A program made the position numbers and the translations under genes. 64,000 nt of DNA from Heterodontus francisci (Eukaryota), in NCBI RefSeq assembly GCF_036365525.1, contig NC_090389.1, forward strand, positions 38,066,973 to 38,130,972. Reading direction: 5' to 3'. The number at the start of each line of letters is the position of its first letter. Positions within the stretch are counted from its first letter, which is position 1. The notes under the pieces are model-generated. The model was given only the letters and a program-made list of their open reading frames with translations, was not told where the DNA came from and did no database searches. Shown here in pieces: positions 4 through 59,403 of the stretch.

Positions 4-700
4 ATGGATACCAAATTTCCCAACATGAACTGGAAGGCCATGGATATCCTGTTTAAGTTCCAACTTGTCAAACAGACAATGCAGTTATGCTTCACAGACC
101 GAGTAATTGCAGAACCAGAAAAACAGGCTGTGGAAATACTAATAGATGTTGGAAATGCAGGATTACACAGAATCAATACATCTGGCTTATTTGAAGAGGA
201 CTAGAAAGACCCCACAAAGATATGGAAAGTGCTAGAAGATCAGCTCTGATTACAAGCGTATTTTAGAATTCACCGCCTGGAATTGATGTCCTACAGGCAA
301 CAGCCACAGGAATAATTTGACCAGTTCATCAGTAGATGCTAAAGTCAGGGCAACTTCTCAGAAACTGAGCTGTCGGACCGAATAATAGAGCTGGTGATTG
401 TATTGACCGACACCCATTGAAGCATTTCAGAAAGACTTCTTGGGGAAAAAGAAAGGTCACAGCATTGATGTAGTGCTGGAAAATGGCAAGAAATATGAAG
501 CCATAGCTGGACAACACCTGCAAGCAGTAGGTGGAGCCAACAATGTCAGCACCATAACCAGGTCGAAAAGAGCAAGCAAGCTGTGTGGTAAGCGTAGTCT
601 GTCCCACTCACGCGAACTTGTATTGCATTTCTTGACCAGTGCAAGGCGTGTGGTGCAAAAGGACACTGGGCCCGCCTATGCAGGAAATCTGACTCCAACG
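4..700 (+). pseudogene. gag: Gypsy-type gag (decayed; stops and frameshifts)
   Basis: ATG at 4; Gag-like segments (RLELMSYRQQPQE*FDQFISRC); canonical CX2CX4HX4C knuckle CKACGAKGHWARLC at 640-681, preceded by a degenerate first knuckle (CGKRSLSH). Confidence 0.85.
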
Positions 701-929
701 CATGGCCAGAAGCCACTGCAGGATACAGACAAACAGAAGACAGGCACAGCAACAGGGCAACAGCAGCAAGGAAAGTGTCAGAGACCTGTGTAAACGCAAG
801 CCAATACATGAAGTCCACAGTGAAACAGACCTGAGTAAAGACTCAGCGAGTCAGAAGACGAACAGGCTTTCCACATTGTGCACCTGACACATCACGTTGA
901 TGAAGTTAAACAACTGGAATATTGCGCCA

Positions 930-1260
930 CAATGAACATCATGTGCCCAAAGAAAGCTGGCAAACATACACTCAGGGTCAAGATTGACACCGGCGCTGGT
1001 GCAAATATCCTACCAGTCTGAATGCTCAAAGATATGTACCGGAGTTGTTGGAAATCAATGATACAACCGACAACTGCCAAGTTATCGGCATATAATGAGT
1101 CACCTATCCCTTGCAGTGGCACACTGTCCATGCAATGCAGACATCGCAAGTTGGCATGGAAACCACAAACCTTCTATCTAGTAGACACGAGCGGACCAGC
1201 AGTGGCAGGACTACCAGCATGTAAGGACCTCAACATCATAACTATCCACGAGAGCATTGG
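930..1260 (+). pseudogene. Retropepsin-type aspartic protease of the LTR element
   Basis: Frame of 971 reads LRVKIDTGAGANILPV*MLKD...KLSAYNESPIPCSG...FYLVDTSGPAVAGLPACKDLNII; DTG active site and C-terminal motif typical of Gypsy protease; TGA at 1019 consistent with CpG decay. Confidence 0.9.
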
Positions 1261-1297
1261 TAAGGGGAAATCTCCACAGACCGGAACCCACTTGCAG

Positions 1298-1503
1298 ACT
1301 CTGGCCAGCATCAAATGGTAGACCCTGGAAACCCAGCAACAGCACAAGTATGCCGCGCCTTCACTTCTGCTCTCGAGAGAACCGCCAGCAACACAAAGAG
1401 CCAGAATGGACAGATACCTCTATGAAACCAAGTACTCTTCCCCTAACAAGTCCTCGACCCTGAGTCCCAGGCCTTCAGACGCGCAGGATGAGGAGAGGCA
1501 AAG
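1298..1503 (+). pseudogene. myc: Captured Myc-family sequence, part 1 (Myc box IV, NLS-like segment, acidic stretch before the basic region)
   Basis: Reads LASIKW*TLETQQQHKYAAPSLLLSREPPATQRARMD...STLSPRPSDAQDEERQ; compare c-Myc LVLKRCHVSTHQHNYAAPP...PAAKRVKLD...SPRSSDTEENVKR and N-Myc QQHNYAAPS...LSPRNSDSEDSERR. Confidence 0.9.
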
Positions 1504-3188
1504 TCATAGAGTTATACAGCACAGAAACAGACCCTTCGGCCCATCATGACTGTGCCAGCCATCAAGCACCTAACTATTCTAATCCCATTTTCCAGCACTT
1601 GGCCTGTAGCCTTGTATGCTATGGCATTTCAAGTGCTCATCTAAATACTTCTTAAATGTTGCGAGGGTTCCTGCCTCTACCACCTCTTCAGGCAGTGCGT
1701 TCCAGATTCCAACCACCCTCTGGGTGATAAAAGTTTTCCTCAAATCCCCTCTAAACCTCCTGCACCTTACCTTAAATCTATGCCCCCTGGTTATTGACTA
1801 CACTGCGAAGGGAAAAAGTTTCTTCCTATCTAAAATTATCAATGCCCCTCATAATTTTGTATACCTCAATCATATCTCCCCTCAGCTTTCTCTGCTTTAA
1901 GGAAAACAGCCCTAGCCTTTTCAGTCTCTCTTCATAGCTGAAATGCTCCAGACCAGGGAACATCCTGGTGAATCTCCTCTGCACCCTCGCCAGTGCAATC
2001 ACATCCTTCCTATAGTGTGGTGCCGAGAACTGTACACAGTACTCCAGCTGTGACCTAACTAGCGTTTTATACAGCTCCATCATAACCTCCCTGCTCTTAT
2101 ATTCTATGCCTTGGCTAATAAAGGCAAGTATCCCATATGCTTTCCTAACCACCTTATCTTCCTGTGCTGCTGCCTTCAGTGATCTATGAGCAAGTACACC
2201 AAGGTCTCTCTGACCCTCTGTACTTCCTAGAGTCCTACCATCCATTGTATATTCCCTAGCCTTGTTAGTCCTCCCAAAATGCATCACCTTACATTTCTCG
2301 GGATTAAATTTCATTTGCAACAGCTCCGCCCATCTTACCAGCCCATCTATATCGTCCTGTAATTTAAGGCTTTCCTCTTCATTATTTACGACACCACCAA
2401 TTTTCGTGTCATCTGTGAACTTACTGATTATATCTCCTATATTCACGTCTAAATCATTAATGTCCACTACAAACAGCAAGAGTCCCAGCACTGATCTCTG
2501 CGGTACACCACTGGTCACAGGCTTCCACTTGTAAAAGCAACCCTTGACTATTACCCGCTGCCTTCTGCCACGAAGCCAATTTTGGATCCAATTTGCCAAA
2601 TTGCCCTGGATCCCATGGACTCTTACCTTCCTAACGAATCTCCCATGTGGGACCTTATCAAAAGCCTTACTAAAATCCATATAGACTACATCAACTGCTT
2701 TACCCTCATCTACACATTTTGTCACCGCCTCAAAAAATTCAATCAAGTTAGTCAGACACGATCTCCCCTGACAAAGCCATGCTGACTATCCCTGATTAAT
2801 CCCTGCCTCTCCAAGTGGCGATTAATCCTGTCCCGCAGAATTTTTTCCAATAGTTTCCCAACCACTGATGTTAGACTCACTGCCTGTAAATACCTGGTTT
2901 ATCCCTGCTACCCTTCTTAAATAATGGTACCACATTCGCTGTCCTCCAGTCCTCTGGTACCTCTCCTGTGGCCAGAGAGGATTTGAAAATTTGGGTCAGA
3001 GCCCCTGCCTCCTCCCTTGCCTCACATAACAGCCTGGGATACATCTCATCTGGGTCTGTGGATTTATCCACTTTTAAGCCCGCTAAAACAGCTAATACTT
3101 CCTCCCTTTCAATGCTAATATGTTCAAGTATATCACAATCCCCCTCCCTGATCTCTACACCTACGTCGTCCTTATCCATAGTGAACAC
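1504..3188 (-). mobile_element. CR1 LINE, 5'-truncated (RT region + 3' tail), inserted into the myc sequence
   Basis: ORFs 1826-2746 (DFSKAFDKVPH, SGVPQRSVLG, KFTDD) and 2877-3236 (ANVVPLFKKG); short-repeat tail next to 1504. Confidence 0.95.
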
Positions 3189-3440
3189 AGAACACGCAAT
3201 GTCCTGAAGAGGCAGAGGAAGAATGAGTTGAAGCATTGTCTATTGGCTCTTCAAGATGAGGTGCTGGAACCTTCCAAGAATGTTTGGGGCTCAAAAGTGG
3301 TCCTTTTGAGAAAAGCAACAGAGTATGCTAGCAGGCTGAAGGCAGAGCAACAGAAACTGAATGGAGAGAGGGAGAAATCTTAGGAAGAACAGCAACAGAT
3401 GAGATGCAAATTCCCCGAGCAAGAGTTGTCAAACCACCGA
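3189..3440 (+). pseudogene. myc: Captured Myc-family sequence, part 2 (bHLH-leucine zipper)
   Basis: RTRNVLKRQRKNELKHCLLALQDEVLEPSKNVWGSKVVLLRKATEYASRLKAEQQKLNGEREK...QQQMRCK aligns without gaps to c-Myc [57 protein letters not shown]; stop/indel near 3381. Confidence 0.95.
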
Positions 3441-3559
3441 GATGATATCTCGACTTTTGAGCCTCTATATTTGTGAATTTTACAATTTCTATCCATGTGT
3501 AAATAATCTTGATGTTATCTATTTTATGTTTTTACTTTTAGCATAAGAGACCTATCTTT

Positions 3560-3573
3560 GGAAAGAAGGGGGA
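3560..3573 (+). other. Polypurine tract (plus-strand primer site)
   Basis: GGAAAGAAGGGGGA immediately 5' of the TG start of the LTR. Confidence 0.8.
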
Positions 3574-3811
3574 TGTTGTATGATTGCCTTAAAGAGTGAG
3601 ATCCCTTTAAGATCTTAGTATGCTAATGAGCTAAGTACCAGGACCTAGTCATGTGACTGCAAGTCAGGGTCACTCTGCAACTGTAACACCTGGAGGCAAG
3701 TTCTGTAAATAGTCAGATTGTACTGTATGTAATAGTTAGCTGTAAGAAACCTGTTTGAGATCTTCAACTAACTGGACTCCACACATCTCATTTATGTTGC
3801 ATCAGACAACA
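3574..3811 (+). mobile_element. 3' LTR (~238 bp)
   Basis: Starts TGTTGTATGAT, ends ATCAGACAACA (10/11 inverted match); probable decayed poly(A) signal near 3744; alternative end at 3828 (TCATTACA). Confidence 0.7.
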
Positions 3812-4469
3812 TAAAAGAACTCATTACATCTTTCTTTTTTTTGGCTGAGTAGTTTTGTGTTTTGAGTTGATAGAGTATCAAGCCACTTATCAGTTAATTT
3901 GTTTTTAAAAATTCTGTTCAACTTAAATAGCCACATTTGTAATTTTGTCCAAATTTAGTGTTAATGTATGAAATGTGCCAAGAAACCTTGAATGAGGTAG
4001 AAAAGATAAATTACTTGATCATCTTTCCACATCTATTTCTAAGTATATATATATATTTTTATCCATGAAAGAAGTTATGCCTTGAACTGATTCTCTTTAT
4101 TCGCGAGCTCCCCACCATCATCTCGTCTATCGGTGTAAGGTTCCAAGAGCCATCTTTAGATGTGAACCTGAGTGATAAACAGGCTATTTTACTGTAGGGG
4201 ATAGTACAGCTGAGCTTCATCCTGTTTTCACCATATATCCTTACATGTCCCAGTTCAGGAGCTTGGTATAATTCAGTCACATGTCATCCTTACGAACTGA
4301 GCCATCAGCAAGAGAGCTCTTCTGTCTCAGATTTTCTTCTCTCCAGTCAGTGGCCACTCTCCACTACTTCACCCAAGTAACCAATTTTCATGTTTTAGTC
4401 TAGACAGTGATTATTGACTAATCTGTCAATTATGGGGCCATCACAGGTAAGTTTGATCCTGACCTCATC

Positions 4470-18900: not shown

Positions 18901-21055
18901 CTGTCAAGATTTGAATTTGTCACCACTTTTGTGGGATCAGAAGTCAAATGTTCTCGCATTTATATGACAGGATAACCTCAAAGATTCCCAAAGACTCATC
19001 CCTCAAATGGATGACACTATTGTTATTACATTTAGTAGATATATGGGCCCAGATTTTTCTTTCAGCGGCAAAGGAATGACGCTTGCCGTTCAGCGCGATT
19101 TCCTCCAATATGCATCTTTCCAGTGAGGTGTCTTTTATAGGGGATTTGTGGTGTCTGTGAACAGGATAAGCAACAGTGAGACTCTTCAAACAATCAGATT
19201 TCTGTATCCTTGCTGAGACACACAGAGTCCAAACCAAGAAGTTAAAGCAGGAAATATAAATTAGATTTAAGTGATGTATAAGAACATAAGAAGTAGGAGC
19301 AGGTGTAGATCATACACCCCACTGAGCCTGCTCTGGCATTCAATATGATCGTGGCTGATCTTCCACTCCACTTTCCCACCCACTTGCCATATCCCTTAAT
19401 TTCCCGAGAGACCAAACATCTGTCTATTTCAGCCTTAAATATATTTAACGATGGAGCATCCACAATCCTCTGGAGTAGAGAATTCCAAAGATTCACAACC
19501 CTTTGAGTAAAGAAATTTCTCCTCATTTCAGTCCTAAATGATTGTCCTGTTATCCTGAGACTGTGCCCCCATGTTTTAGATTCCCCAGCCAGCAGAAACA
19601 ACCTCTTAGTCTCTACCCTGTCATGCCCCTTCAGAATCTTGTATGTTTCAAAGAAATCACCTCTCATTCTTCTAAACTCCAGAGAATATAGCCCAATTTA
19701 CTCAGTCTCTCATCATAGGACAACCCTCTCATCCCAGGGACCAATCTAGTGAACCTTTGCTGTACAGTATATCCTTCCTTAAATATGGAGACCACAACTG
19801 TGCACAGTATTCCAGGTGTCATCTCACCAAAGCCCTGTACAATTGTAGCGAGACTTTTTTATTCTTGTACTCCAATCCCATTGTAATAAAGGCCAACATG
19901 CCATTTGCCTTCCTAATTGTTTTCTGTACCAGTATTCTAACTTTCTGTCTTCCTTGTACGAACACACCCAAGTCTCTCTGAACATTAACATTTACAACTT
20001 TCATGCCTTTAAAAAAAATTCTGCTCTTCTACTCGTATGACCAAAGTAAATAACTCCACACTTCTCCAAATTATACACCATCTGCCATCTTGCTGCCCAC
20101 TCACTTAACCTGTCTATATCTCTTTGTAGCCTCTTTGCGTCCTCCTCACAGCTTGCATTTTGATCTACCTTTGTATCATACAGCAAATTTAGATACATTA
20201 CTCTGTCTCTTCGCCTAAGTCATTAATATAGATTATAAATAGCTGAGAGCCCAGCACCGATCCTTGCGACACTCCACTAGTCCTGCCAACTTGAAAATGC
20301 CCCATTTATGCCTGCTCTTTGCTTCCTGTCTGTTAACCAATCCTCTATCCATGCTCATATATTAACCCCAACTCCATGAGCCCTTAACTTGCATATTAAC
20401 CTTTTGTGTGGCACATTATCAAATGCCTTCCCGAAATCCAAGTATACTACATCTACTGGTTCCCCTTTATCTACTCTACTAGTTACATCCTCAAAAAACT
20501 CTAATAAATTTGTCAAACATGATTTTCCTTTTGTAAAACCATGTTGACTTTGTTATTGTGCATTGTTAAGACTTCCTTGATAATAGATTCCAGCACTTTC
20601 CCAAAGACTGATGTCAGGCTAACTGGCCTGTAGTTCCCCGTTTTCTCTCTCTCTCCTTTCTTGAATAGCAGTGTTACATTTGCTAACTTCCAATCTGCTG
20701 GGACTGTTCCAGAATCCAGGGAATTTTGGAAAATCGTAGCCAGTGCATCCACTATCTCTGCAGCTATCTCTTTTCGAACCCGAGGATGTAGGCCATCAGG
20801 TCCTGGGAATTTGTTGGATTTTAGTCCCTTAAGTTTCTCCAACACTTTTCTCTATTGATATTTCCTTAATTTCTCTCTCTTTTTGCCCCTAGATTACCTC
20901 TATTTCTGGTAAGCAACTTATGTCTTCTGTTATGAAGACAGACACAAAATAATTGTTCAATGTCTCTGCCATTTCCTCATTCCCAATAATTTCACCTGTC
21001 TCTGCTTGTAAGGGATGAGTGTTTACTTTAGCTACTCTCTTCCTTTTTATATACT

Positions 21056-26138: not shown

Positions 26139-27985
26139 GCATAAGAAATAGGAGCAGGAGTAGATCGTACTGTCCCTCAAGCCTGCTCCACCATTCAATG
26201 AGATTATGGTATATCTTCAGCATCAACTCCACTTTCTTGCCCTATCCATATCCCTTGATTCCCTTAGAGTCCAAAAATCTATCAATCTCAGCCTTGAATA
26301 TACTTAACGACTGAGCATCCACAGCCCTCTGGGGCAGAGAATTCCAAAAATTCACAACCCTCCGAATGATTAAATTTTAAGTTAATCTCAGGCCTGATCA
26401 GCCAACACCTTATCTTGAGACTGTGCCCCCAAGTTCTCGATTCCCTAACCGGGGAAACAGTCTCTCTGCATCTACCCTGTCCATCCCTCTTCGAATCTAG
26501 TATGTTTCAATAAGATCAATTCTCAGTCTTCTAAAGTACAGAAAGTATAGGCCCATCTACTCAATCTCTTCTCATAGGACTATCCTATCATCACAAGAAT
26601 TAATCTATTGAATCTTTGTTGCACCACCTCCAAGACAAGTATATCCTTTCTGAGATACAGAGACCAAAACTGCACACAGTATTCCAGGAGTGGTTTCATC
26701 AAAACCCCGCACAATTGCAGCAAGACTTCCTTCCAATTGTACTCTAATCCTCTTGCAATAAAGGCCATTTCCTTTCTTAGTTGCTTGCTGTACATGCTTG
26801 TCAACTTTTGATGATTCATGTACAAACACCCAAAGTCCTCTGAACATCAAAATTTAATATTTCTCACCATTTAATTTTTTTTTCTATTCTTCTTACCAAA
26901 GTGATTAACCTCACATTTCTCCACATTATACTCCATCCGCCACCTTCTTGCCACCCAGTTAACCTCTCTATATCCTTTTGCAGACTCCTTTGCCGCAATT
27001 TAACGATGAGGCGGTGGCCCCGCCCACCAGCTGGAAAGCTGGGGGCGAGCCTGCCTCTGCTGGGCATGCTGCTATTTTGCTGATTGGCTGTAGTCAGGGC
27101 TTCTACCCATCTGAGGCAGCAAGACCCACCTCCAATAACTGCTGGCCAATCAGAGGGCTGGCAGTTCTTCGACCCTAGTAGTGCCACCGGGAGCGGTGGC
27201 CCGTGCTGGGACTGAAGCTGGCCAGGACCAGCAACAATGGAGAAGGCCCCGGAATGGAGGTCAGCGTGTGGGCACTCGCTGGGGACAATCGGCTAGGTCC
27301 CAGTAAGGGAGGAGGAGGGGCGGGGTGGTAATCAGAGTGTAGGGCAGGGAGGCTTGTTTCAGCAGGGATAGCCCATGCTGCTGGGGGGCCCTCCATGTGG
27401 CACAGGGATCCCGATCAGCAAGACCCCCCCCCCAGCCCACAAGGAGGTGGCCATGTATTACTAGACGGCCTCCTCAGCTGCCAAAGTGCCTGATGGTGGT
27501 AAAATTTCAACGGGGAGGGGAAGAGGCCTTCAAGTGGCCATTAATTGGTCATTAAGGGCCTCAATAGGCCTAAGGGTGGGCGGGCCACCTACTCCCTCCC
27601 TCACTGCTGGTAAAATAGCAGCAAGGGGCAAGTAGGCGATAGGCATGGCACGCTCCACCTCCCACCCCCCCCCCCCAACCTCGGCTCCCACCCTATTTTA
27701 TGCCCACCCACCGCCTCCTATCCTGCTTCCGGAGGGGCGTAAAATTCTGTTCTTAATTGCCACTTATCTTTTTATTGCCAGCAAACTTGGATACCTTAAA
27801 CTTGGTCCCTTCATCTAAGTCATTAATATAAATTGTAAATAGCTGAGGCCCCAACACTGATCCTTATGACACCCACATAGCCTGCCAACCTGAACATGAC
27901 CTGTTTATTCCTTCTCTCTGTTTTCTGTCCTTCAACCAATCCTCTATTCATGCTAATATACTACCCCAATTCCATGAGCCCTCAT
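26139..27985 (-). mobile_element. CR1 RT/3' fragment with nested MITE
   Basis: LEYCVQFWS motif in ORF 26580-26825; CR1 tail at 26139. Confidence 0.85.
26991..27751. mobile_element. Harbinger-type MITE (opposite orientation to 23644-24406)
   Basis: Degenerate TIRs TGCCGCAATTTAAC / GTAAAATTCTGT; internal sequence is reverse-complement similar to the 23644 and 51678 copies. Confidence 0.7.
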
Positions 27986-29962: not shown

Positions 29963-30019
29963 TTCTACTTAATGACAAGCCGCAGAAACTGGATTGATCC
30001 ACTACAGGTCTTCTGTAAT

Positions 30020-33000
30020 ATGTAGGAATCTGTTGATCTCAGTCTTGAACATACTCAACGACTGAACCTCCACAGCCCTCTGGGCAGAGAATTCCAAAGA
30101 ATTACCACCCTCTGAGTGAAGAAATTCCTCCTCATCTCAGTCCTAAATGACCTGCCCTTATTCTGAGACTGTGTCCCCTGGTCCTGGACTCCCCAGCCAG
30201 GGAAAACATCCTTCCTGCATTAACCCTGTCGAGCCTGTAAGAATTTTGTATGTTTGAATGAGATCACCTCTCATTGTTCTAAACTCCAGAGAATAAAGGC
30301 CCAGTCTATTTAATCTTTCCTCATAGGACAATCCCTCCATCCCAAAATTAGTTTGGTGAACTTTTCTTGCACTCGCTGTATGGCAAGTATATCTTTTCTT
30401 CGGTAAGTAGACCGAAACTGCACACAATGCTCCAGGTGCGGTCTCACCAAGGCACTATATAATTGCCGTAAGCCACATTTACTCCTATACTCTAATCCTC
30501 TTGTAATGAAGGCCATCATACCATTTGCCTTCGTAATTGCTTGCTGCACCTGCATGTTAATTTTCAGTGACTCATGAACAAGGACACTCAAATCCCTTAA
30601 AAATTCAACACTTCCCAGCCTCTCACCATTTAGGAAATACTCTGTATTTCTGTTTTTTCTACCAAAGTGGATAACCTCACATTTCTCCACATTGTATTCC
30701 ATCTGCCAAATTTTTGCCTGCTCACTTAGCCTCTCCAAATTCCCCTGAAGTGTCTTTGCATCCTCACAACTCTCACTTCCACCTAGTTTTGTGTCATCTG
30801 CAAACTTGGAAATATTACCTTTAATCCCCACATCCAAATAATTGATATAGATTATGAATAGCTGGGGTCCAAGCACTGACCCTTGCAGTACACCACTAGT
30901 CACAACCTGCCAATCGGAATTTATTTCTACTCTCTGTTTTCTGTCCATTAACCAGTTCTCAATCCATGCCAGTATATTCCCTCCAATCCCATGTGCTCTA
31001 ATTTTGTTTACGAACCACTTGTGTGGAACCTTATCAGAAGCTTTCTGAAAATCTAAGTATACTACATCCACTGGTTCCCCCTTATCTATTCTGCTAGTTA
31101 CATCCTCAAAAAACTCCAATAGGTTTGTTAAACATGATTTCACTTTCATAAATCCAGTTGACTCTACCCAATCCTACCATTATTTTCTAAGCGTCCTGTA
31201 TCACAGGCTTGGGGAGGAAGTGGTGCAGTGGTATTGTCACTTGAGTAATAACCCAAAGACCCAAGGTATTGCTCTGGAGACATGGGTTCGAATCCCACCA
31301 TGGCAGAAGATGGAATTTGAATTCAATTAATAAATCTGGAATTAAAAGCTAGTCTAATGATAGCCATGAATCCATTGTCCATTGTTGTAAAAACCCATCT
31401 GGTTCACGAATGTCCTTTAGGGAAGGAAATCTGCTGTCTTTACCTGGTCTGCCCTTCATGTGACACCAGACCCACAGCAATGTGTTTGACGCTTAATGCC
31501 CTCTGAGATGGCCTAGCAAGCCACTCAGTTTTATCAAACCACTACAAAATCAATAAGGAATGAAACCTGACGGACCACCCGGCATCGACCTACGCACCAG
31601 AAACGACAACGGCAAACCCAGCCCTGTCGACCCAGCAAAGTCCTCCTTATTAACATCTGGGGGCTTGTGCTAAAGTTGGGAGAGCTGTCCCAGCCTGACA
31701 TAGTCAAGCTCATAGAATCATATTTTACAGACAATGTCCCAGACACCGCAATCTCCGTCCCCCGGTATGTCCTGTCCCACCGGCAGGACAGACGCAGCAG
31801 AGGTGGTGGCACAGTGGTATACAGTCGAGAGGGAGTTGCCCTGAGAGTCCTCAACGTGGACTCTGGATCCCATGAATTCTCATGGCATCAGGTCAAACAT
31901 GGACAAGGAAACCTCCTGCTGGTTACCAACTACCACCCCCCCATCAGCTGATGAGTCAGTACTCCTCCATGTTGAACACCACTTGGAGAAAGCACTGAGG
32001 GTGGCAAGGGCACAGAATGTACTCTGGGTGGGGGACTTCAATGTCCATCAACAGGAGTGGCTTGGTAGCACCATTACTGACCGAGCTGGCCGAGTCCTAA
32101 AGGTCATGGTTGCTAGACTAGATCTGCGGCAGGTAGTGAGGGAAACAACAAGAGGGAAAAACATACTTGACCTTGTCCTCACCAATCTGCCTGTCACAGA
32201 TGCATCTGTCCATGAGAGTATTGGGATGAATGACTACCGCACAGTCGTTGCAGAAACAAAGTCCCGTCTGAAAATTGAGGATACCCTCCATTGTGTTGTG
32301 TGGCACTACCACCATGATAAATGGGATGGAATTCAAACAGATCTAGCAATGCAAAACTGAGCATCCATGAGACGCTGTGGGCCATAAGCAGCAGCAGCAG
32401 AATTGTATTCAACTATACTCTTTAATCTCATGGCCTGGCATATCCCCCACTCTATCATTACCATCAAGCCGGGGAACCAACCCTGGTTCAATGAAGAATG
32501 CAGGAGGGCATGCCAGGAGCAGCACCAGGCATACCTCAAAATGAAGTGTCAACCCAGTGAAGCTACAATCCAGGACTACTTGTGTGCCGAACAGCATAAA
32601 CAGCATGCAATAGACAGAGCTAAGCGATCCCATAACCAATGGATCAGATCTAAGCTCTGCAGTCCTGCCACGTTCAGTCATAAATGGTGGTGGACAATTG
32701 AACAACTAACAGGAGGATGTGGCTCCACAATATCCCCATCCTCAATGATGGGGCAGCCCAGCACATGAGTGCAAAAGATAAGGCTGAAGCATTTGCAACA
32801 ATCTTCAGCCAGAAGCGCCGAGTAGATAATCCATCTCGGCCTCATCCTGAAGTCCCCAGCATCACAGATGCCAGTCTTCAGCCAATTTGATTCACTCCGT
32901 GTGATATCAAGAAAGGACAGAAGGCACTGGATACTGCAAAGGCTCTGGGCCCTGAAAATATTCTGGCAATAGTACTGAAGACCTGTGCTCCAGAACTTGC

Positions 33001-35420: not shown

Positions 35421-37149
35421 ATAGGAGTATAGGAGCAGCCGGCTGGTGGTTATGTAAGCATTCTCCGAAACTGAACATAATTGATCTTGGGGTTGCACAA
35501 CAGAACCCAAATGCACATGCAGCCTGTCAGAAATCCCTGGCCTGACTAAGGCATAATTGTTGACTTATACCCTCCCCCAACTCAGCAAGTTTGGGGCCAC
35601 AAACTTAAATAAGAGGATTGAAGAAAAGTTTCTTCATCTAGAGACTGTTATTTTCAAAATAATTTCTCAAAATTTCAGAAGTTATTGAAGCAGTTAATTA
35701 CCCCATTACAGAACATTGCAGTGTTGCTGTATTCAATACTTGTACTTGATTAGCATTTGTCATATTCATGTTTCACTTTTCCTTGTATAATAATTATTCA
35801 GAAATATTTCAGTTATTTTGACCTGTAAAGACCTCTGATCTAAACTTCACATTCCACAAATCCAAAGAAAGTGGTATTGCAGTTGGGTAACCATTAGTCC
35901 ACTGGATAAAACAACAACAGGTGTTTGAATAAAATACTGGTTCTAGTTTGTAAAGGCCAATGTCTATTTTGGGAACTGCTATGAAACCATAAAGATAAAC
36001 ATCTGAAAGCCTAAAATCGTTCTTAAGAAAAGGATATCCTAATTAACAGAAACTTTACTTCTGACACCTCTTGTCTAATTCATATTTCACATACACCTGG
36101 CATTAGTTTGTGTGTGTGTGGATATATATATATATAAATATACATGTGACTTGCTTCATGCAGTAATGCTGTGTTGATTAACAACTGTGAAACACAACTT
36201 CCTAGGCTGACGAAAAAAACCTGTTTCTTCTTTCTTGACTGTGATACCAACATAAGATATGAACATACGAATTAGGAGCAGGAGTAGGCCACTCGGCCTT
36301 TCGAGCTTGCTCCGCCATTCAATAAGTTCATTGCTGAACTGATTACTCCACATTTCTACCTACTCCCAATAACGTTCCACCCCCTTGCTTATTAAGAATC
36401 TATCTACCTCTGCCTTAAAAATATTCAAAGACTCTACCTCCACCACCTTTTGAGGAAGAGAATTCCAAAGATTCACGACCCTCTTAGAGAAAAAATTTCT
36501 CCTCATCTCTGTCTTAAATGGACGACCCGTTATTTTTAAACAGTGACCCCTTGTTCCCACAAGGGGAAACATCCTTTCACATCCACCCTGTCAAGACCCC
36601 TCCGGATCTTATATATTTCAATCAAGTCACCCCTTACTCTTCTAAATTCCAGCAGATAAAAGCCTAGCCTGTCCAATTTTTCCTCGTATGACAGCCCGCC
36701 CATTCCAGGTATTAGTCTAGTAAACCTTCTCTCTACCGCCTCCAATGCATTTACATCCTTCTTGAAATAAGGAGACCAATACTGTACACAGTACTCCAGA
36801 TGTGGTCTCACCAATGCCCTATACAGCCGAAGCATAACCTCCCTACTTTTGCAATTCAATTCCCCTTGCAATAAATGATAACATTCTATTAGCTTTCCTA
36901 ATTATTTGCTGTACCTACATACTAACCTTTTGCAATTCATGCACTAGGACACCCAGATCCCTCTGCATCTCAGAACTCTGCAAGCTCTCACCATTTAGAT
37001 AATATGCTTCTTTTTTATTCTTCCTGCTAAAGTGGTCAATTTCACACTTTCCCACATTATACCCCATTTGCCAGGTCTTTCCCACTCACATAACCTATCT
37101 ATATCCCTTTGCAGCCCCCTTATGTCCTCTTAACAAGTTAATTTCCTAC

Positions 37150-37310
37150 CTAAAATAAAAGCAAAATACTGCAGATGCGGAAAGTCTGAAATAAAAACAA
37201 AAAACACTGGAAATACTCAGCAGATCTGGCAGCATCTGTGGAGACAGAAGCAGAGTTAATGTTTCAGGCCAGTGACCTGTTGAGTATTTCCAGCATTTCT
37301 TGTTTTTATT
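37150..37310. mobile_element. Penelope-like inverted repeat fragment nested in CR1
   Basis: AAAACACTGGAAATACTCA...TGAGTATTTCCAGCATTT inverted arms; same family as 59166. Confidence 0.6.
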
Positions 37311-39189
37311 ACTTTCCTACCTATCTTTGTGTCATCAGCAAATGTAGCAACCATACCTTTAGTCCCTTCATCTAAGTCATTTATAAAAATTATAAAATGT
37401 TGAGGCCCCAGCACAGATCCCTGTGGCACACCACTCATTACATCTTGCCAACCAGTAAATGACCCATTTATGTCTACTCTCTGTTTCCTGTTAGCTAGCC
37501 AATCTTCTTTCCATGCCAATATGTTACTGCCTACACCATGGGCTATTATTTTCTGCAATCATCTTTGATGTGGCACCTTATCAAATGCCTTCTGGAAATC
37601 TAAGTACAATAAATCCACCAGTTCCCCTTTATCCACAGAATATGTAACTCCCTTAAAGAGCTCCAAAGATTTTCCTTTCACAAAACCATGCTGACTCTGC
37701 CTGGTTACCTTGAAATTTTCTAAATGACCTGCTCTAACGTCTTTCATAATAGCTTCTAACATTTTACCTCAGACAGATGTTAAGCTAACTGGCCTGTAGT
37801 TTCCTGCTTTCTGTCTCCCTCCCTTTTTGAATAAAGGAGTTACATTGGCTATTTTCCAATCTAAAGGAACCTTCTCCGAATCTAGGGAATTTTGGAAAAC
37901 TAAAACTAATGCATCAACTATCTCACCAGCCACTTCTTTTAACACCCTAGGATGAAGTCCATCGGGATCCGGGGACTTGTCAGCCCACAGATCCAACAAT
38001 TTGTTCAGTAGCCCTTTTCTTGAGTTCCTTCCTCCCTCTATTTCCTGACTTACAGCTAATACTGGGATGTTACTTCTATCCTCAATAGTGAAGACCGATG
38101 CAAAATATCTGTTCAATTCATCTACCATCTCATTATCCATTATTAATTCCCCAGACTCACTTTCTACAGGACCAACGCTCACTTTGTTAACTCTTTTCTT
38201 TTTGAACTATCTATAGAAATTCTTACTATCTGTCTTTATATTTCTTGATAGCTTTCTCTCGTACTCTAATTTTACCTTCCTTATCAATCTTTTAGTCATT
38301 CTTTGCTGTTTTTTATACTCTGTCCAATCTTCTGACCCACCCCCCATCTTTCCGCAATTACAAGCTTTTTCTTTGTGTGATACTATCTTTAACTGTTTTT
38401 GAAATTTTTTTTTATTCATTCATGGAATGTGGGTGTTGCTGGCTAGTTAACCATGGATGGCAGGTCCCACCCTTGGAATTTTTCTTTCTTGTTGAAATGT
38501 ATCTGTTCTGTGTATTCTGAAATATCCCCTTAAATGTCTGCCACTGCATCTCTATTGCACTATCCCTTAACCTGATTTTCCAGTTCACTTTAGCTAGCTC
38601 TGCTTTCATGCCCTCATAATTACCCTTATTTCAGTTTTAAATACTAGTCTTGGACCCACTCTTCTCTCCCTCAAACTGAATGTAAAATTCAATCATATTA
38701 TGATCACTACTAACTAGGGGCGCCTTAACTATGAGATCATTAATTAATCCTATCTCATTGCACAATGCCAGGTCTAGTATAGCCTGCTCTCTGGTTGGCT
38801 CCAGAACGTATTGTTCCAAGAAATTATCTCCAAAACATTCTAAATACTCCTCATCTAGGCTACTTCTGCCCACCTGATTTTTAAAATCCCTGATAATTAT
38901 CACCGTACCTTTCTGACAAGCTGCCATTATTTCTTCCTTTATACCCTGTCCTACAGTGTGGTTAATGTTAGGTGGCCTGTACACCACTCCCACAAGTGAC
39001 CTCTTGCCTTTATGATTTCTCATCTCTACCCAAACTGCTTCTACGTTCTGGTCTCCTGAACACAGCATATCCCTCTCTATTATGCTAATACCATCATTAA
39101 TTAACAGAGCTATCTCCACCTTTTCCTTGCTTCCTGTCCTTCCTAAGTGCCATGTACCCTTCAATATGCAGGTCCCAATCTATGTCATC

Positions 39190-39808
39190 ATAGAGTTATA
39201 GAGTTATACAGCACAGAAACAGGCCCTTCGGCCCACTGTGTCCACACTGGCTGTCAAGCCTATCTATTCTAATTCCAATTTCCAGCACTTGGCCCGTAGC
39301 TTTGTATGTTATGGTGTTTCAAGTGCCCATCTAAATACTTCTTAAATGTTGTGAGGGTTCCTGCCTCTACCACCCCTTCAGGTAGTGCGTTCCAGATTGC
39401 AACCACCCTCTGGGTAAAAATATTTCCTCAAATCCCCTCTAAACCTCATGCCCCTTACCTTAAATCTGGTTATTGACACTGCTGCTAAGGAAAACATTTT
39501 CTTTCTATCAAACCTATCTATGTCCCTCATAATTTTGTATACCTCAATCAGGTCCCCACTCAGCCTTCTCTGGCTCTAAGGAAAACAACCCTAGTCTAGC
39601 CAGTCTCTCTTCATGACTGAAATGCTCCAGTCCAGGCAACATCCTGGTGAATCTTCTCTACACCCTCTCCAGTGCAATCCCATCCTTCCTATCGTGTGGC
39701 GATCAGAATTGTACACAGTACTCCAGCTGTGGCCTAACTAGCATTTTATACAGCTCCACCATAACCTCCCTGCTTTTATATTCTATACCTCGGCTAATAA
39801 AGGCAGTT
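39190..39808 (-). mobile_element. Younger CR1 3' fragment nested in the EN domain of the older CR1
   Basis: Closely similar to 1504-2125; tail CATAGAGTTATAGAGTTATA. Confidence 0.88.
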
Positions 39809-39965
39809 GTCCTGCAGCCATGTCTCTGTAATGGCTATCAGATCGTACTTATTTATTTCTATTTGCGCTCTCAGTTCATCTGTTTTGTTTCGAATGCTAT
39901 GTGCATTCAGATACAGAGCCTTTAGTTTTGTCCTTTTATTATTTTTGTAACCTCTAGCCTTATCT

Positions 39966-41886: not shown

Positions 41887-44800
41887 TTCCCTGCTCCACT
41901 CCTGCTGCTCCTGCTGTGCTCCTCTCTCTCTCTCCACTCCTGCCGTGCTCCTCTCTCTCTCTTTCCGCTCCCGCCATGTTCCTCTCTCTCTCTCCACTCC
42001 TGCCGTGCTCCTCTCTCTCTCTTTCCGCTCCCGCCATGCTCCTCTCTCTCTCCGCTCCCGCCATGCTCCTCTCTCTCTCCGCTCCCGCCGTGCTCCTCTC
42101 TCTCTCCACTCCTGCCGTGCTCCTCTCTCTCTCTCCACTCCCGCCATGTTCCTCTCTCTCTCTCCGCTCACGCCGTGCTCCTCTCTCCCTCTTTCCGCTC
42201 CCGCCATGCTCCTCTCTCTCTCTCCGCTCCCGCCATGCTCCTCTCTCTCTCTCCGCTCCTGCCGTGCTCTTCTCTCTCTCTCCGCTCCTGCCGTGCTCCT
42301 CTCTCTCTCTCCGCTCCTGCCATACTCCTCTCTCTCTCCGCTCCTACCGTGCTCCTCTCTCTCTCTCCACTCCCGCCATGTTCCTCTCTCTCTCTCCGCT
42401 CCTGCCGTGCTCCCCTCTCTCTCTCCGCTCCTGCCGTGCTCCCCTCTCTCTCTCTCCGCTCCTGCCGTGCTCCCCTCTCTCTCTCCGCTCCTGCCGTGCT
42501 CCCCTCTCTCTCTCTCCGCTCCTACCGTGCTCCTCTCTCTCTCTCCACTCCCGCCATGTTCCTCTCTCTCTCTCCGCTCCCGCCGTGTTCCCCTCTCTCT
42601 CTCCGCTCCCGCCCTGCTCCTCTCTCTCTCTCTCTGCTCCCGCCCTGCTCCTCTCTCTCTCTCTGCTCCCGCCCTGTTCCTCTCTCTCTCTCTGCTCCCG
42701 CCCTGCTCCTCTCTCTCTCTCTGCTCACGCCGTGTTCCTCTCTCTCTCCGCTCCCGCCATGTTCCTCTCTCTCTCTGCTCCCGCCCTGCTCCTCTCTCTC
42801 TCTCCGCTCCCGCCGTGTTCCTCTCTCTCTCTCCGCTCCCGCCATGTTCCTCTCTCTCTCTCCGCTCCCGCCATGTTCCTCTCTCTCTCTCCGCCCCTGC
42901 CGTGCTCCTCTCTCTCTCTCTCCACTCCCGCCATGCTCCTCTCTCTCTCTCCGCTCCCGCCATGCTCCTCTCTCTCTCTCCGCTCCTGCCGTGCTCCTCT
43001 CTCTCTCTCCACTCCCTCCATACTCCTCTCTCTCTCTCCGCTCCCGCCATGTTCCTCTCTCTCTCTCCGCTCCCGCCGTGTTCCTCTCTCTCTCTCCGCT
43101 CCTGCCGTGCTCCTCTCTCTCTCTCCACTCCCGCCATGCTCCTCTCTCTCTCTCCACTCCCGCCATGCTCCTCTCTCTCTCTCCACTCCCGCCATGCTCC
43201 TCTCTCTCTCTCCACTCCCGCCATACTCCTCTCTCTCTCTCCGCTCCCGCCATGTTCCTCTCTCTCTCTCCGCTCCCGCCATGTTCCTCTCTCTCTCTCC
43301 GCTCCTGCTGTGCTCCTCTCTCTCTCTCCGCTCCCGCCGTGCTCCTCTCTCTCTCTCCGCTCCCGCCGTGCTCCTCTCTCTCCGCTCCCGCCGTGCTCCT
43401 CTCTCTCCGCTCCCGCCGTGCTCCTCTCTCTCCGCTCCCGCCGTGCTCCTCTCTCTCTCTCTGCTCCCGCCATGCTCCTCTCTCTCTCTCCGCTCCCGCC
43501 ATGCTCCTCTCTCTCTCTCCGCTCCCGCCATTCTTCTCTCTCTCTCTCCGCTCCTTCCGTGCTCCCCTCTCTCTCTCCACTCCCGCCATGCTGCTCTCTC
43601 CACTCCCGCCATGCTCCTCTCTCTCTCTCCGCTCCCGCCATGTTCCTCTCTCTCTCTCCGCTCCCGCCATGTTCCCCTCTCTCTCTCCGCTCCCACCGTG
43701 TTCCCCTCTCTCTCTCCGCTCCCACCGTGTTCCCCTCTCTCTCTCCGCTCCCGCCCTGCTCCTCTCTCTCTCTGCTCCCGCCCTGCTCCTCTCTCTCTCT
43801 GCTCCCGCCCTGCTCCTCTCTCTCTCTCTCTGCTCCCGCCCTGCTCCTCTCTCTCTCTCTGCTCCCGCCCTGTTCCTCTCTCTCTCTCTGCTGCCGCCCT
43901 GCTCCTCTCTCTCTCTCTGCTCCCGCCCTGCTCCTCTCTCTCTCTCTGCTCACGCCGTGTTCCTCTCTCTCTCTCTCCGCTCCCGCCATGTTCCTCTCTC
44001 TCTCTCCGCTCCCGCCATGTTCCTCTCTCTCTCTCTGCTCCCGCCCTGCTCCTCTCTCTCTCTCCGCTCCCGCCATGTTCCTCTCTCTCTCTCCGCTCCC
44101 GCCATGTCCCTCTCTCTCTCTCCGCTCCCGCCATGTCCCTCTCTCTCTCTCCGCTCCCGCCATGTTCCTCTCTCTCTCTCCGCTCCCGCCATGCTTCTCT
44201 CTCTCTCTCTGCTCCCGCCGTGCTCCTCTCTCTCTCTCCACTCCCGCCATGTTCCTCTCTCTCTCTCTGCTCCCGCCGTGCTCCACTCTCTCTTTCCGCT
44301 CCCGCCATGCTCCTCTCTCTCTGCTCCTGCCCTGCTCCTCTCTCTCTCTCCGCTCCTGCCGTGTTCCTCTCTCTCTCTCTGCTGCCGCCCTGCTCCTCTC
44401 TCTCTCTCCGCTCCTGCCGTGCTCCTCTCTCTCCGCTCCTGCCCTGCTCCTCTCTCTCTCTCCGCTGCCGCCATGTTCCTCTCTCTCTCTCTGCTCCCGC
44501 CCTGCTCCTCTCTCTCTCTCCGCTCCCGCCATGTTCCTCTCTCTCTCTCCGCTCCCGCCATGTTCCTCTCTCTCTCTCCGCTCCCGCCATGTTCCTCTCT
44601 CTCTCTCCGCTCCCGCCATGCTTCTCTCTCTCTCTCTGCTCCCGCCGTGCTCCTCTCTCTCTCTCCACTCCCGCCATGTTCCTCTCTCTCTCTCTGCTCC
44701 CGCCGTGCTCCACTCTCTCTTTCCGCTCCCGCCATGCTCCTCTCTCTCTTTCCGCTCCCGCCATGCTCCTCTCTCTCTGCTCCTGCCCTGCTCCTCTCTC

Positions 44801-45500
44801 TCTCTCCGCTCCTGCCGTGCTCCTCTCTCTCCGCTCCCGCCGTGCTCCTCTCTCTCCGCTCCCGCCGTGCTCCTCTCTCTCCGCTCCCGCCGTGCTCCTC
44901 TCTCTCCGCTCCCGCCGTGCTCCTCTCTCTCCGCTCCCGCCGTGCTCCTCTCTCTCTCTCCGCTCCCGCCGTGCTCCTCTCTCTCTCTCCGCTCCCGCCG
45001 TGCTCCTCTCTCTCTCTCCGCTCCCGCCATGCTTCTCTCTCTCTCTCCGCTCCTTCCGTGCTCCCCTCTCTCTCTCCACTCCCGCCATGCTCCTCTCTCC
45101 GCTCCCGCCATGTTCCTCTCTCTCTCTCCGCTCCCGCCGTGTTCCCCTCTCTCTCTCCGCTCCCGCCGTGTTCCCCTCTCTCTCTCTGCTCCCGCCCTGC
45201 TCCTCTCTCTCTCTGCTCCCGCCCTGCTCCTCTCTCTCTCTCTGCTCCCGCCCTGCTCCTCTCTCTCTCTCTCTGCTCCCGCCCTGCTCCTCTCTCTCTC
45301 TCTGCTCCCGCCCTGTTCCTCTCTCTCTCTCTGCTCCCGCCCTGCTCCTCTCTCTCTCTCTGCTCCCGCCCTGCTCCTCTCTCTCTCTCCGCTCCTCCTG
45401 TGCTCCTCAATTTCTCGCTCTGTCTCTGTCTCCAGTCTCTGACTCTGTGCTTTTGCCGCACTTTTTTATCCTCCACTCCTGCCGTGCTCCTCTCTCTCTC
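41887..45500. repeat. Minisatellite, ~25-33 bp unit CCGCTCCCGCCATGCTC(CT)n, >100 copies
   Basis: Directly visible tandem array; explains the >1000-aa low-complexity ORFs on both strands. Confidence 0.98.
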
Positions 45501-59165: not shown

Positions 59166-59403
59166 TGAAATAAAAACAGAAAGTGCTGGAAATACTCAGC
59201 AGGTCTGGCAGCATCTGTGGAGAGAGAAGCAGAGTTAACGTTTCAGTTCTGTGACCTTTCATCCAGTTCTGATGAAGGGTCACTGACCTGAAACGTTAAC
59301 TGTACTTCTCTCTCCACAGATGCTGCCAGACCTGCTGAGTATTTCCAGCACTTTCTGTTTTTATTTCAGATTTCCAGCATCTGCAGTAGTTTGCTTTTAT
59401 TTT
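59166..59403. mobile_element. Penelope-like palindromic element (~100-bp inverted arms) with hammerhead-like core
   Basis: Arms 59166-59264 and 59269-59368 are near-perfect reverse complements; CTGATGA-hairpin-GAAAC at 59269-59294. Confidence 0.7.

Follow-up and report, generated by a model that had tools for sequence, protein, structure and literature searches.

A host mych fragment fused in frame to the protease of a non-autonomous Ty3/Gypsy-type element in the horn shark genome

How a retroelement protease came to be joined, in a single reading frame, to part of a Myc protein is the question raised by the beginning of a 64,000-nucleotide stretch of Heterodontus francisci DNA (the window). 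We found in the window a single, decayed copy of a non-autonomous Ty3/Gypsy-type element of ~3.1 kb, with the order LTR-gag-protease-myc-LTR. Its 5′ LTR lies ~980 bases upstream of the window (L041:5995 onward), and gag occupies positions 4..895 of the forward strand, with a start codon at 4, a CCHC knuckle at ~640-681 and an N-terminus that matches the Gag-Pol relative P0022; in the window copy, gag is also frameshifted. On the same strand follow a complete retropepsin-type protease (896..1251), with the catalytic DTG at 986-994 and a point stop at 1019, and the first part of a captured mych exon 3 (1252..1503, host residues from ~201), which is in frame with the protease, contains a point stop at 1319 and is 88% identical over 252 nt to the host mych gene on C16. 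The Myc basic region is interrupted by a 5′-truncated LINE on the reverse strand (1504..3190; RVT_1, E 1e-15), which is private to this copy and missing at that place from sister copies. Behind it the captured sequence resumes on the forward strand with the bHLH-leucine zipper (3191..3412, up to host residue ~358; E 3e-13 to solved c-Myc), in which the positions of the base-contact His (3195) and Glu (3207) are substituted and a stop at 3381 is again private (0/26 scorable sister copies). A pol-derived tail between the myc part and the polypurine tract (3413..3559), the polypurine tract itself (PPT; 3560..3573, recognised by its sequence) and the 3′ LTR (TG...CA; 3574..3828, 90% identical to the 5′ LTR), all on the forward strand, complete the element; directly behind it lies a target duplication of 5 bases, one of them mismatched. 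Paired TG...CA LTRs, a primer site and a PPT are present, six LTR pairs being 81-90% identical; LTR start to LTR start measures 2.8-2.9 kb in five of six uninterrupted copies, and a 5-base target-site duplication can be recognised by eye in three of eight elements. Elsewhere in the window we noted related LINE fragments (~19400-20800, 26200-27900, 30000-31200, 36400-38000 and 39250-39800), the one near 39259-39812 being ~88-90% identical to the LINE inside the myc part; a pyrimidine-rich tandem array of ~122 copies of a 29-base unit (41917-45395), with long spurious open frames on both strands; and a near-perfect inverted repeat built from a dispersed repeat, with 98-base arms 7 bases apart (59166-59368).

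The preliminary description had held that the protease and myc codons share one frame broken only by the point stops at 1019 and 1319, and our analysis bears this out, with the DTG at 986 in that same frame. The 1319 stop sits where that description placed it and maps to index 116 of the host exon 3, whereas the start of the myc part has to be moved from 1322 to 1252, where homology to the host gene begins, putting the junction at 1251/1252. The shared frame is more than a 1-in-3 accident of the window copy, as the sister copies have it too: the spacing from DTG to YAAP is in frame in 22/29, and the short junction spacing is 36 bases in all 29 of the best-matching sister copies. Across these 29, only one column carries a stop in most copies in the protease-Myc frame, as against eight and nine in the other two frames. 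The 1319 stop is nearly private, occurring in 2/135 scorable copies of all classes, and no amplified class has a frameshift at its junction. The 1019 stop behaves differently: the four myc classes have it in 17/38, 5/12, 8/31 and 8/36 copies, and it is present in 11/22 of the copies that still bear reverse transcriptase (RT). Because the ancestors of the RT-bearing copies read through this position, it is probably a site of recurrent decay after insertion, and its presence in all classes and in the RT-bearing copies rules it out as an ancestral end of the frame. Three columns of the myc part show recurrent stops of the same kind (54/132, 41/128 and 37/126 copies), two of them independent of the 1019 stop (Fisher p 0.69 and 0.67) and one associated with it (p 0.01). 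The in-frame protease-Myc fusion is thus confirmed as real and family-wide. As for the proposed ancestral Gag-Pro-Myc polyprotein with Myc in the place of RT, a single open gag-protease-myc frame in active elements and the replacement of RT by Myc both hold, and the frames suggest that it was translated; release of a free Myc protein by the protease, and its packaging in particles, would be conjecture.

The donor was host mych, not c-Myc. A Myc_N search of the genome gave, among the 119 of 1,624 candidates that were scored, three host genes with a second exon; MYC-like, MYCN-like and mych genes lie at C5:179.85 Mb, C3:66.19 Mb and C16:100.02 Mb. A separate MYCL was not seen among those 119 of 1,624 candidates, which does not prove its absence. 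The element is 86-93% identical in DNA to the C16 gene and ~65-72% identical to the C5 and C3 genes over comparable stretches (a comparison of identities, not a tree), and this far lower identity rules out c-Myc or N-Myc as the source. The C16 gene, in which two coding exons are open, bears the name myelocytomatosis oncogene homolog, mych, the fourth Myc paralogue. With mych exon 3 as the query, longer copies were found that run straight from the 3′ end of exon 2 into exon 3, the intron being absent, so the captured source was a spliced mRNA. In the longest class the first host residue is ~121, and none of 39 scored copies has an exon 2 match further up. In host Mych, motifs resembling boxes I and II stand at residues 43 and 100, ahead of the first residue captured in any class, and all classes lack Myc boxes I and II. 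These boxes have a role in activation (PMC6337544). In zebrafish, mych is reported to be switched on just after the mid-blastula transition and not to be maternal (PMC3958507); that mych and the element were co-expressed in the early shark embryo is a guess.

What the Myc part replaced can be read from an RT-bearing parent, which was reached with a Gag-Pol relative as the query. Of 30 fetched loci, 22 share the gag and protease of the element at ~76-82% identity, and many share the LTR too. A search for the parent through the top integrase matches was abandoned (0/30 loci fitted). Gypsy-type integrase zinc fingers are very abundant genome-wide, with 34,123 first-look candidates. Pfam identified RT, RNase H and the integrase zinc finger and core in one parent copy (L119), in the Gypsy order PR-RT-RH-IN. 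This Ty3/Gypsy pol order stands in frame with gag in L119 and in the relatives P0022 and P0036, and the modal gag-to-protease spacings are in frame as well; the model and fold alignment of the protease show the retropepsin fold expected of Ty3/Gypsy elements. The family may, at a guess, belong to the Mag clade. In the longest class, the ~2.1 kb that myc replaces start shortly ahead of RT and end past the integrase core, and myc rejoins the frame of the integrase C-terminus, 27/33 copies lying on one diagonal and 22/34 reading into integrase residues. No env was found in the two parent 3′ ends scanned, where the integrase end runs to the PPT and LTR. An E-box-like palindrome at 3648-3657 in the LTR is also present in the RT-bearing parent; the hexamer is moreover non-canonical, and we set it aside as a Myc feedback site. 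The 5′ LTR-to-gag stretch (L041:5995-7101 compared with L042-L052) falls into two groups, ~81-84% and ~69% identical to the window element, pointing to putative recombination with different parent subfamilies.

At the junction itself, the predicted structure of the protease is informative. Pfam gave no match on the gag-protease-myc5′ stretch of the window, protease included, and a sequence search of solved structures with that stretch returned only matches at E 0.9, to Ddi1. The model of 896-1276 has a pLDDT of 92, and its residues 4-119 align with complete retroviral proteases, best with that of EIAV (Z 11.5, rmsd 3.0, 100 residues aligned) and with a Z of 9.8 to residues 5-99 of the HIV-1 enzyme. 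Residue 119 of the model is the codon at the junction, and the window class is therefore the largest deletion that leaves the protease whole. Since the predicted structural end of the protease fold coincides exactly with the junction of this class, the downstream half of any cleavage site there would be Myc-derived.

The 121 distinct myc-bearing loci show four recurring junction classes, with modal spacings of 273 bases in V1 (12/31 measurable), 144 in V2 (25/38), 165 in V3 (10/17) and 36 in the window class (29/29), all of which are multiples of three; two of the loci are unclassed, one of them out of frame. A sample collected with the bHLH region only placed 27/29 loci in the same four classes (11 window type, 9 V1, 6 V2, 1 V3), the remainder being one new singleton junction, in frame, and one that is unmeasurable; all of these locus samples are biased towards copies near the query. 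On the 3′ side, tail deletions of 231 and 321 bases are in frame, and one of 394, dominant in the later classes, breaks the frame at a point past the zipper. Short runs of bases are shared at the junctions (V1 median 6.5, max 9; V2 5; V3 3; window class 2, max 4). The null expectation for junction frame is not one third, because pol and mych share microhomologies that preserve the frame in 38-50% of cases: shared k-mers, real junction sites included, are in frame in 59/157 (k=4), 18/44 (k=5), 6/12 (k=6) and 4/4 (k=7). On this basis the chance that all four classes are in frame is 0.02-0.06, rising to at most ~0.14 when the in-frame state of the two long-homology junctions is assumed beforehand, and 7/8 junctions in frame give p 0.003-0.035. 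Of 147 private indels, only 35 are in frame, and recurrent indels lie for the most part in base runs and occur across the classes, from which it would follow that no frameshifted lineage was amplified; a search among the recurrent indels found no amplified frameshifted sub-lineage. An amplified myc-free deletion class was likewise not seen among 37 myc-free loci. We regard these frame statistics as suggestive, not conclusive, of selection on the frame.

The first-look searches of the 6.0-Gb genome, in which the window lies on contig C19, returned 5,512 candidates when protease and myc were sought together, 2,885 and 2,475 with myc by itself, 948 with exon 2 and 2,286 with RT; these are candidates rather than copy numbers, 40 having been scored per search, and they suggest that about half of the family carries myc. 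Close fusion-type proteins occur only under H. francisci names among the matches listed (7/54 in one search and 1 in another). Contigs from two runs (two studies) of a second organism bridge a window-type junction, with at least three records in X10 and at least one in X5, which would place the window class before that split; among the pieces listed for X8 and X9, none satisfied the 31-base bridging rule. NCBI lists seven element copies (P0159-P0165) as host proteins of myc-like or N-myc-like type, and with at least seven copies annotated as host myc genes, counts of the Myc family in the horn shark will be misled. Another annotated protein, P0001 (TRIM-like, 1,346 residues, with RING, B-box and PRY-SPRY), contains a stretch 64% identical to the element and is probably a gene model that absorbed an element copy.

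The preliminary description had also pointed to dN/dS of the myc part, and here two levels have to be kept apart. Within classes, the ratios of 0-fold to 4-fold divergence are 0.92, 0.96, 1.16 and 0.94 (136 copies, CpG sites excluded), and the copies have decayed neutrally, by ~6-7% each. Between classes net divergence is ~0-3%, and the class-level differing columns comprise 9 replacement changes (361 sites) and 5 silent ones (107 sites), for a dN/dS of ~0.53 that does not differ significantly from 1 (p=0.33); a net dN/dS taken between host gene and family is confounded, since the host gene has itself drifted. One residue is conspicuous. The Glu of the basic region is kept in only 10/35, 3/40, 0/15 and 1/34 copies by class against a background retention of ~0.82, so that it is missing from 110/124 copies and kept in 14/124, and 93/124 carry the residue of the window copy (Lys). 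Its loss is an inherited change. The first base of this codon differs in 88% of copies and its neighbours in 3% and 10%, which rules out dinucleotide hypermutation as the cause. The His four residues before it is kept in 25/32, 12/43, 8/15 and 13/37 copies by class. Mych of the host and of four other sharks keeps both residues, and all seven of the NCBI-annotated element copies are without the Glu. Hits on two of the three base-contact codons, given 6-10 lineage changes, have a post hoc p of 0.004-0.011. Markers cut across the junction classes, which suggests recombination, and ten V1 copies that keep the Glu lack any other common marker; their standing as an older branch is unproven. In human MYC the E-box is read by this pair of residues, and a protein mutated at both can still bind Max but does not activate and, when over-expressed, acts as a dominant negative (10.1101/2020.05.04.076190). 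A product without Myc boxes I and II, and in 110/124 copies without the Glu, would not act as an ordinary Myc. Active elements probably made a fusion of Gag, protease and truncated Mych that was DNA-blind or dominant-negative, and not an oncogene.

Our preferred account of these observations begins with a Ty3/Gypsy-type retrotransposon that would have co-packaged spliced host mych mRNA, its RT then jumping twice from one template to the other where the two had a short sequence in common. In the longest class, mych residues ~121-358 take the place of RT, RNase H and the integrase core, in frame at both ends; the switching is what we propose as the mechanism. The derivative keeps the LTRs, primer site, PPT, gag and protease, and RT and integrase would have been supplied in trans by the parent. 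Further deletions would have produced the four amplified junction classes, with the window class trimmed to the exact end of the protease, and active elements would have translated one Gag-protease-truncated-Mych polyprotein. Its Myc part would have been mainly a translated passenger, in a frame that stayed open to near the 3′ LTR; the E-box-reading residue may have been lost early because a Myc that binds DNA without activating is harmful, and since then all examined copies have decayed neutrally. We give this account, in which the Myc part is disarmed and carried in a frame kept open, a probability of about 0.5. A class-level dN/dS that is not significantly below 1 is what would be expected of a passenger. 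The evidence that the frame was kept open is modest, four classes out of four having an in-frame chance of ~0.02-0.14. A selected function would fit equally well with the retention of the bHLH-zipper through every deletion and with the hits on both base-contact residues.

One such function, which we consider possible though on balance unlikely, is that of a Myc antagonist: the truncated Mych, free or fused, would pair with Max, be blind to the E-box and damp host Myc in the germline or early embryo, to the advantage of the element. The whole bHLH-zipper is kept in every class while sequence upstream of it is deleted, the sole out-of-frame amplified junction lies behind the zipper, the Glu has been lost almost to fixation with the His following in later classes, and the Myc-bearing candidates equal or exceed the RT-bearing ones. 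In its favour, too, is the human MYC His/Glu double mutant, which retains Max binding and acts as a dominant negative when over-expressed (10.1101/2020.05.04.076190). Against this reading stand the insignificant dN/dS on the 14 class-level changes, several other class-wide changes at residues conserved in 4/4 outgroups, zipper included, and the presence of the E-box-like LTR hexamer in the RT-bearing parent. Rather doubtful, in our view, is the idea that selection never saw the Myc part, the in-frame joins being favoured by microhomology, the Glu change a founder accident and the spread due to shortness and the kept Gag and protease. The microhomologies are indeed biased in frame, the original 3′ junction joins near-identical codon runs of zipper and integrase, net divergence between classes is so low that the path was too short for many breaks, and LTR-mediated retrocopies are reported to arise likewise in many animals (PMC5131818). 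Yet the V3 and window-class junctions are in frame despite shared runs of only 2-4 bases, private indels mostly break the frame, and two of three base-contact codons were hit among the ~6-10 lineage changes. Finally, the element might have gained a growth-promoting Myc, as a germline counterpart of v-myc. Fusion to Gag and helper dependence resemble the avian gag-myc viruses, and 10/35 copies of the oldest class retain the Glu. Hydra Myc3 is reported to lack all Myc boxes and to have a C-terminus with transforming potential (PMC10177328). This explanation is largely refuted and we hold it to be very improbable, given that boxes I and II precede the earliest captured residue in host Mych with none of the scored copies reaching further up exon 2, that E-box recognition is lost in most copies, and that the two parent 3′ ends scanned have no env.

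The element resembles known forms of gene capture, from each of which it also departs. Like the LTR-mediated retrocopies described in PMC5131818, which also cites maize Bs1 and HERV-K/FAM8A1, it has spliced host mRNA in place of internal ORFs, shows a short stretch in common at each switch point, retains both LTRs and went through further rounds of amplification as a non-autonomous element; those events, as described there, yielded one to few insertions each, in contrast to the thousands of candidates in the shark, and the nested in-frame junction classes, the fusion of the Myc cargo to protease and the inherited loss of DNA recognition go beyond the cases given there. The crocodilian CrocERV29 (KIT ligand) and CrocERV31 (nectin3) are likewise LTR elements of a vertebrate germline; each took up a host mRNA, in one case a cancer-linked one, and went on to multiply (PMC4299795). 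They differ in being endogenous retroviruses with 9 and 6 reported copies, in having cargo under purifying selection, and in carrying it between pol and env or in place of env, whereas the shark cargo replaces RT-RH-IN and is fused to gag-protease. Naturally changed base-contact residues in a putatively Max-binding bHLH-zipper, such as the Lys at the Glu position of the window copy, recall the engineered Ala of human MYC H359A/E363A (10.1101/2020.05.04.076190). The shark element shares with the avian viruses a Myc in frame behind gag, and lacks the activation domain, the E-box reading in most copies and, in the parent ends scanned, an env-bearing helper. In avian gag-myc retroviruses such as MC29, a Myc cDNA stands in frame behind gag, replaces pol and requires a helper; these viruses are infectious and somatic, and carry c-myc with its activation domain and E-box reading, unlike the germline, env-less shark element with its mych without boxes I and II. 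Omomyc-type dominant negatives are engineered Max-binding bHLH-zippers with changed base contacts or a missing activation domain. No published description of the shark Myc element was found in the literature searched; supplements, subscription papers, Dfam or Repbase could hold one. The available text of PMC13320880 makes no mention of horn shark, Heterodontus or MYC, and that of PMC13297096 gives no description of the element.

Oncogene capture by infectious retroviruses was known already, as was LTR-mediated gene capture in mostly low-copy cases. The shark element adds a fossil record, in thousands of candidates, of how a Gypsy-type element without env captured a Myc-family gene in the germline of a vertebrate, and the order of events after capture can be read from it: first the full in-frame replacement, next the loss of the Glu that reads the E-box, and after that a nested series of deletions reaching the end of the protease. 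If the less probable antagonist reading were true, the family would represent a natural dominant-negative Myc within a Gag-protease polyprotein that modulates host Myc, and an RT-less derivative as numerous as its helper. The record makes it testable whether growth genes captured by such elements are kept, disarmed or turned into antagonists.
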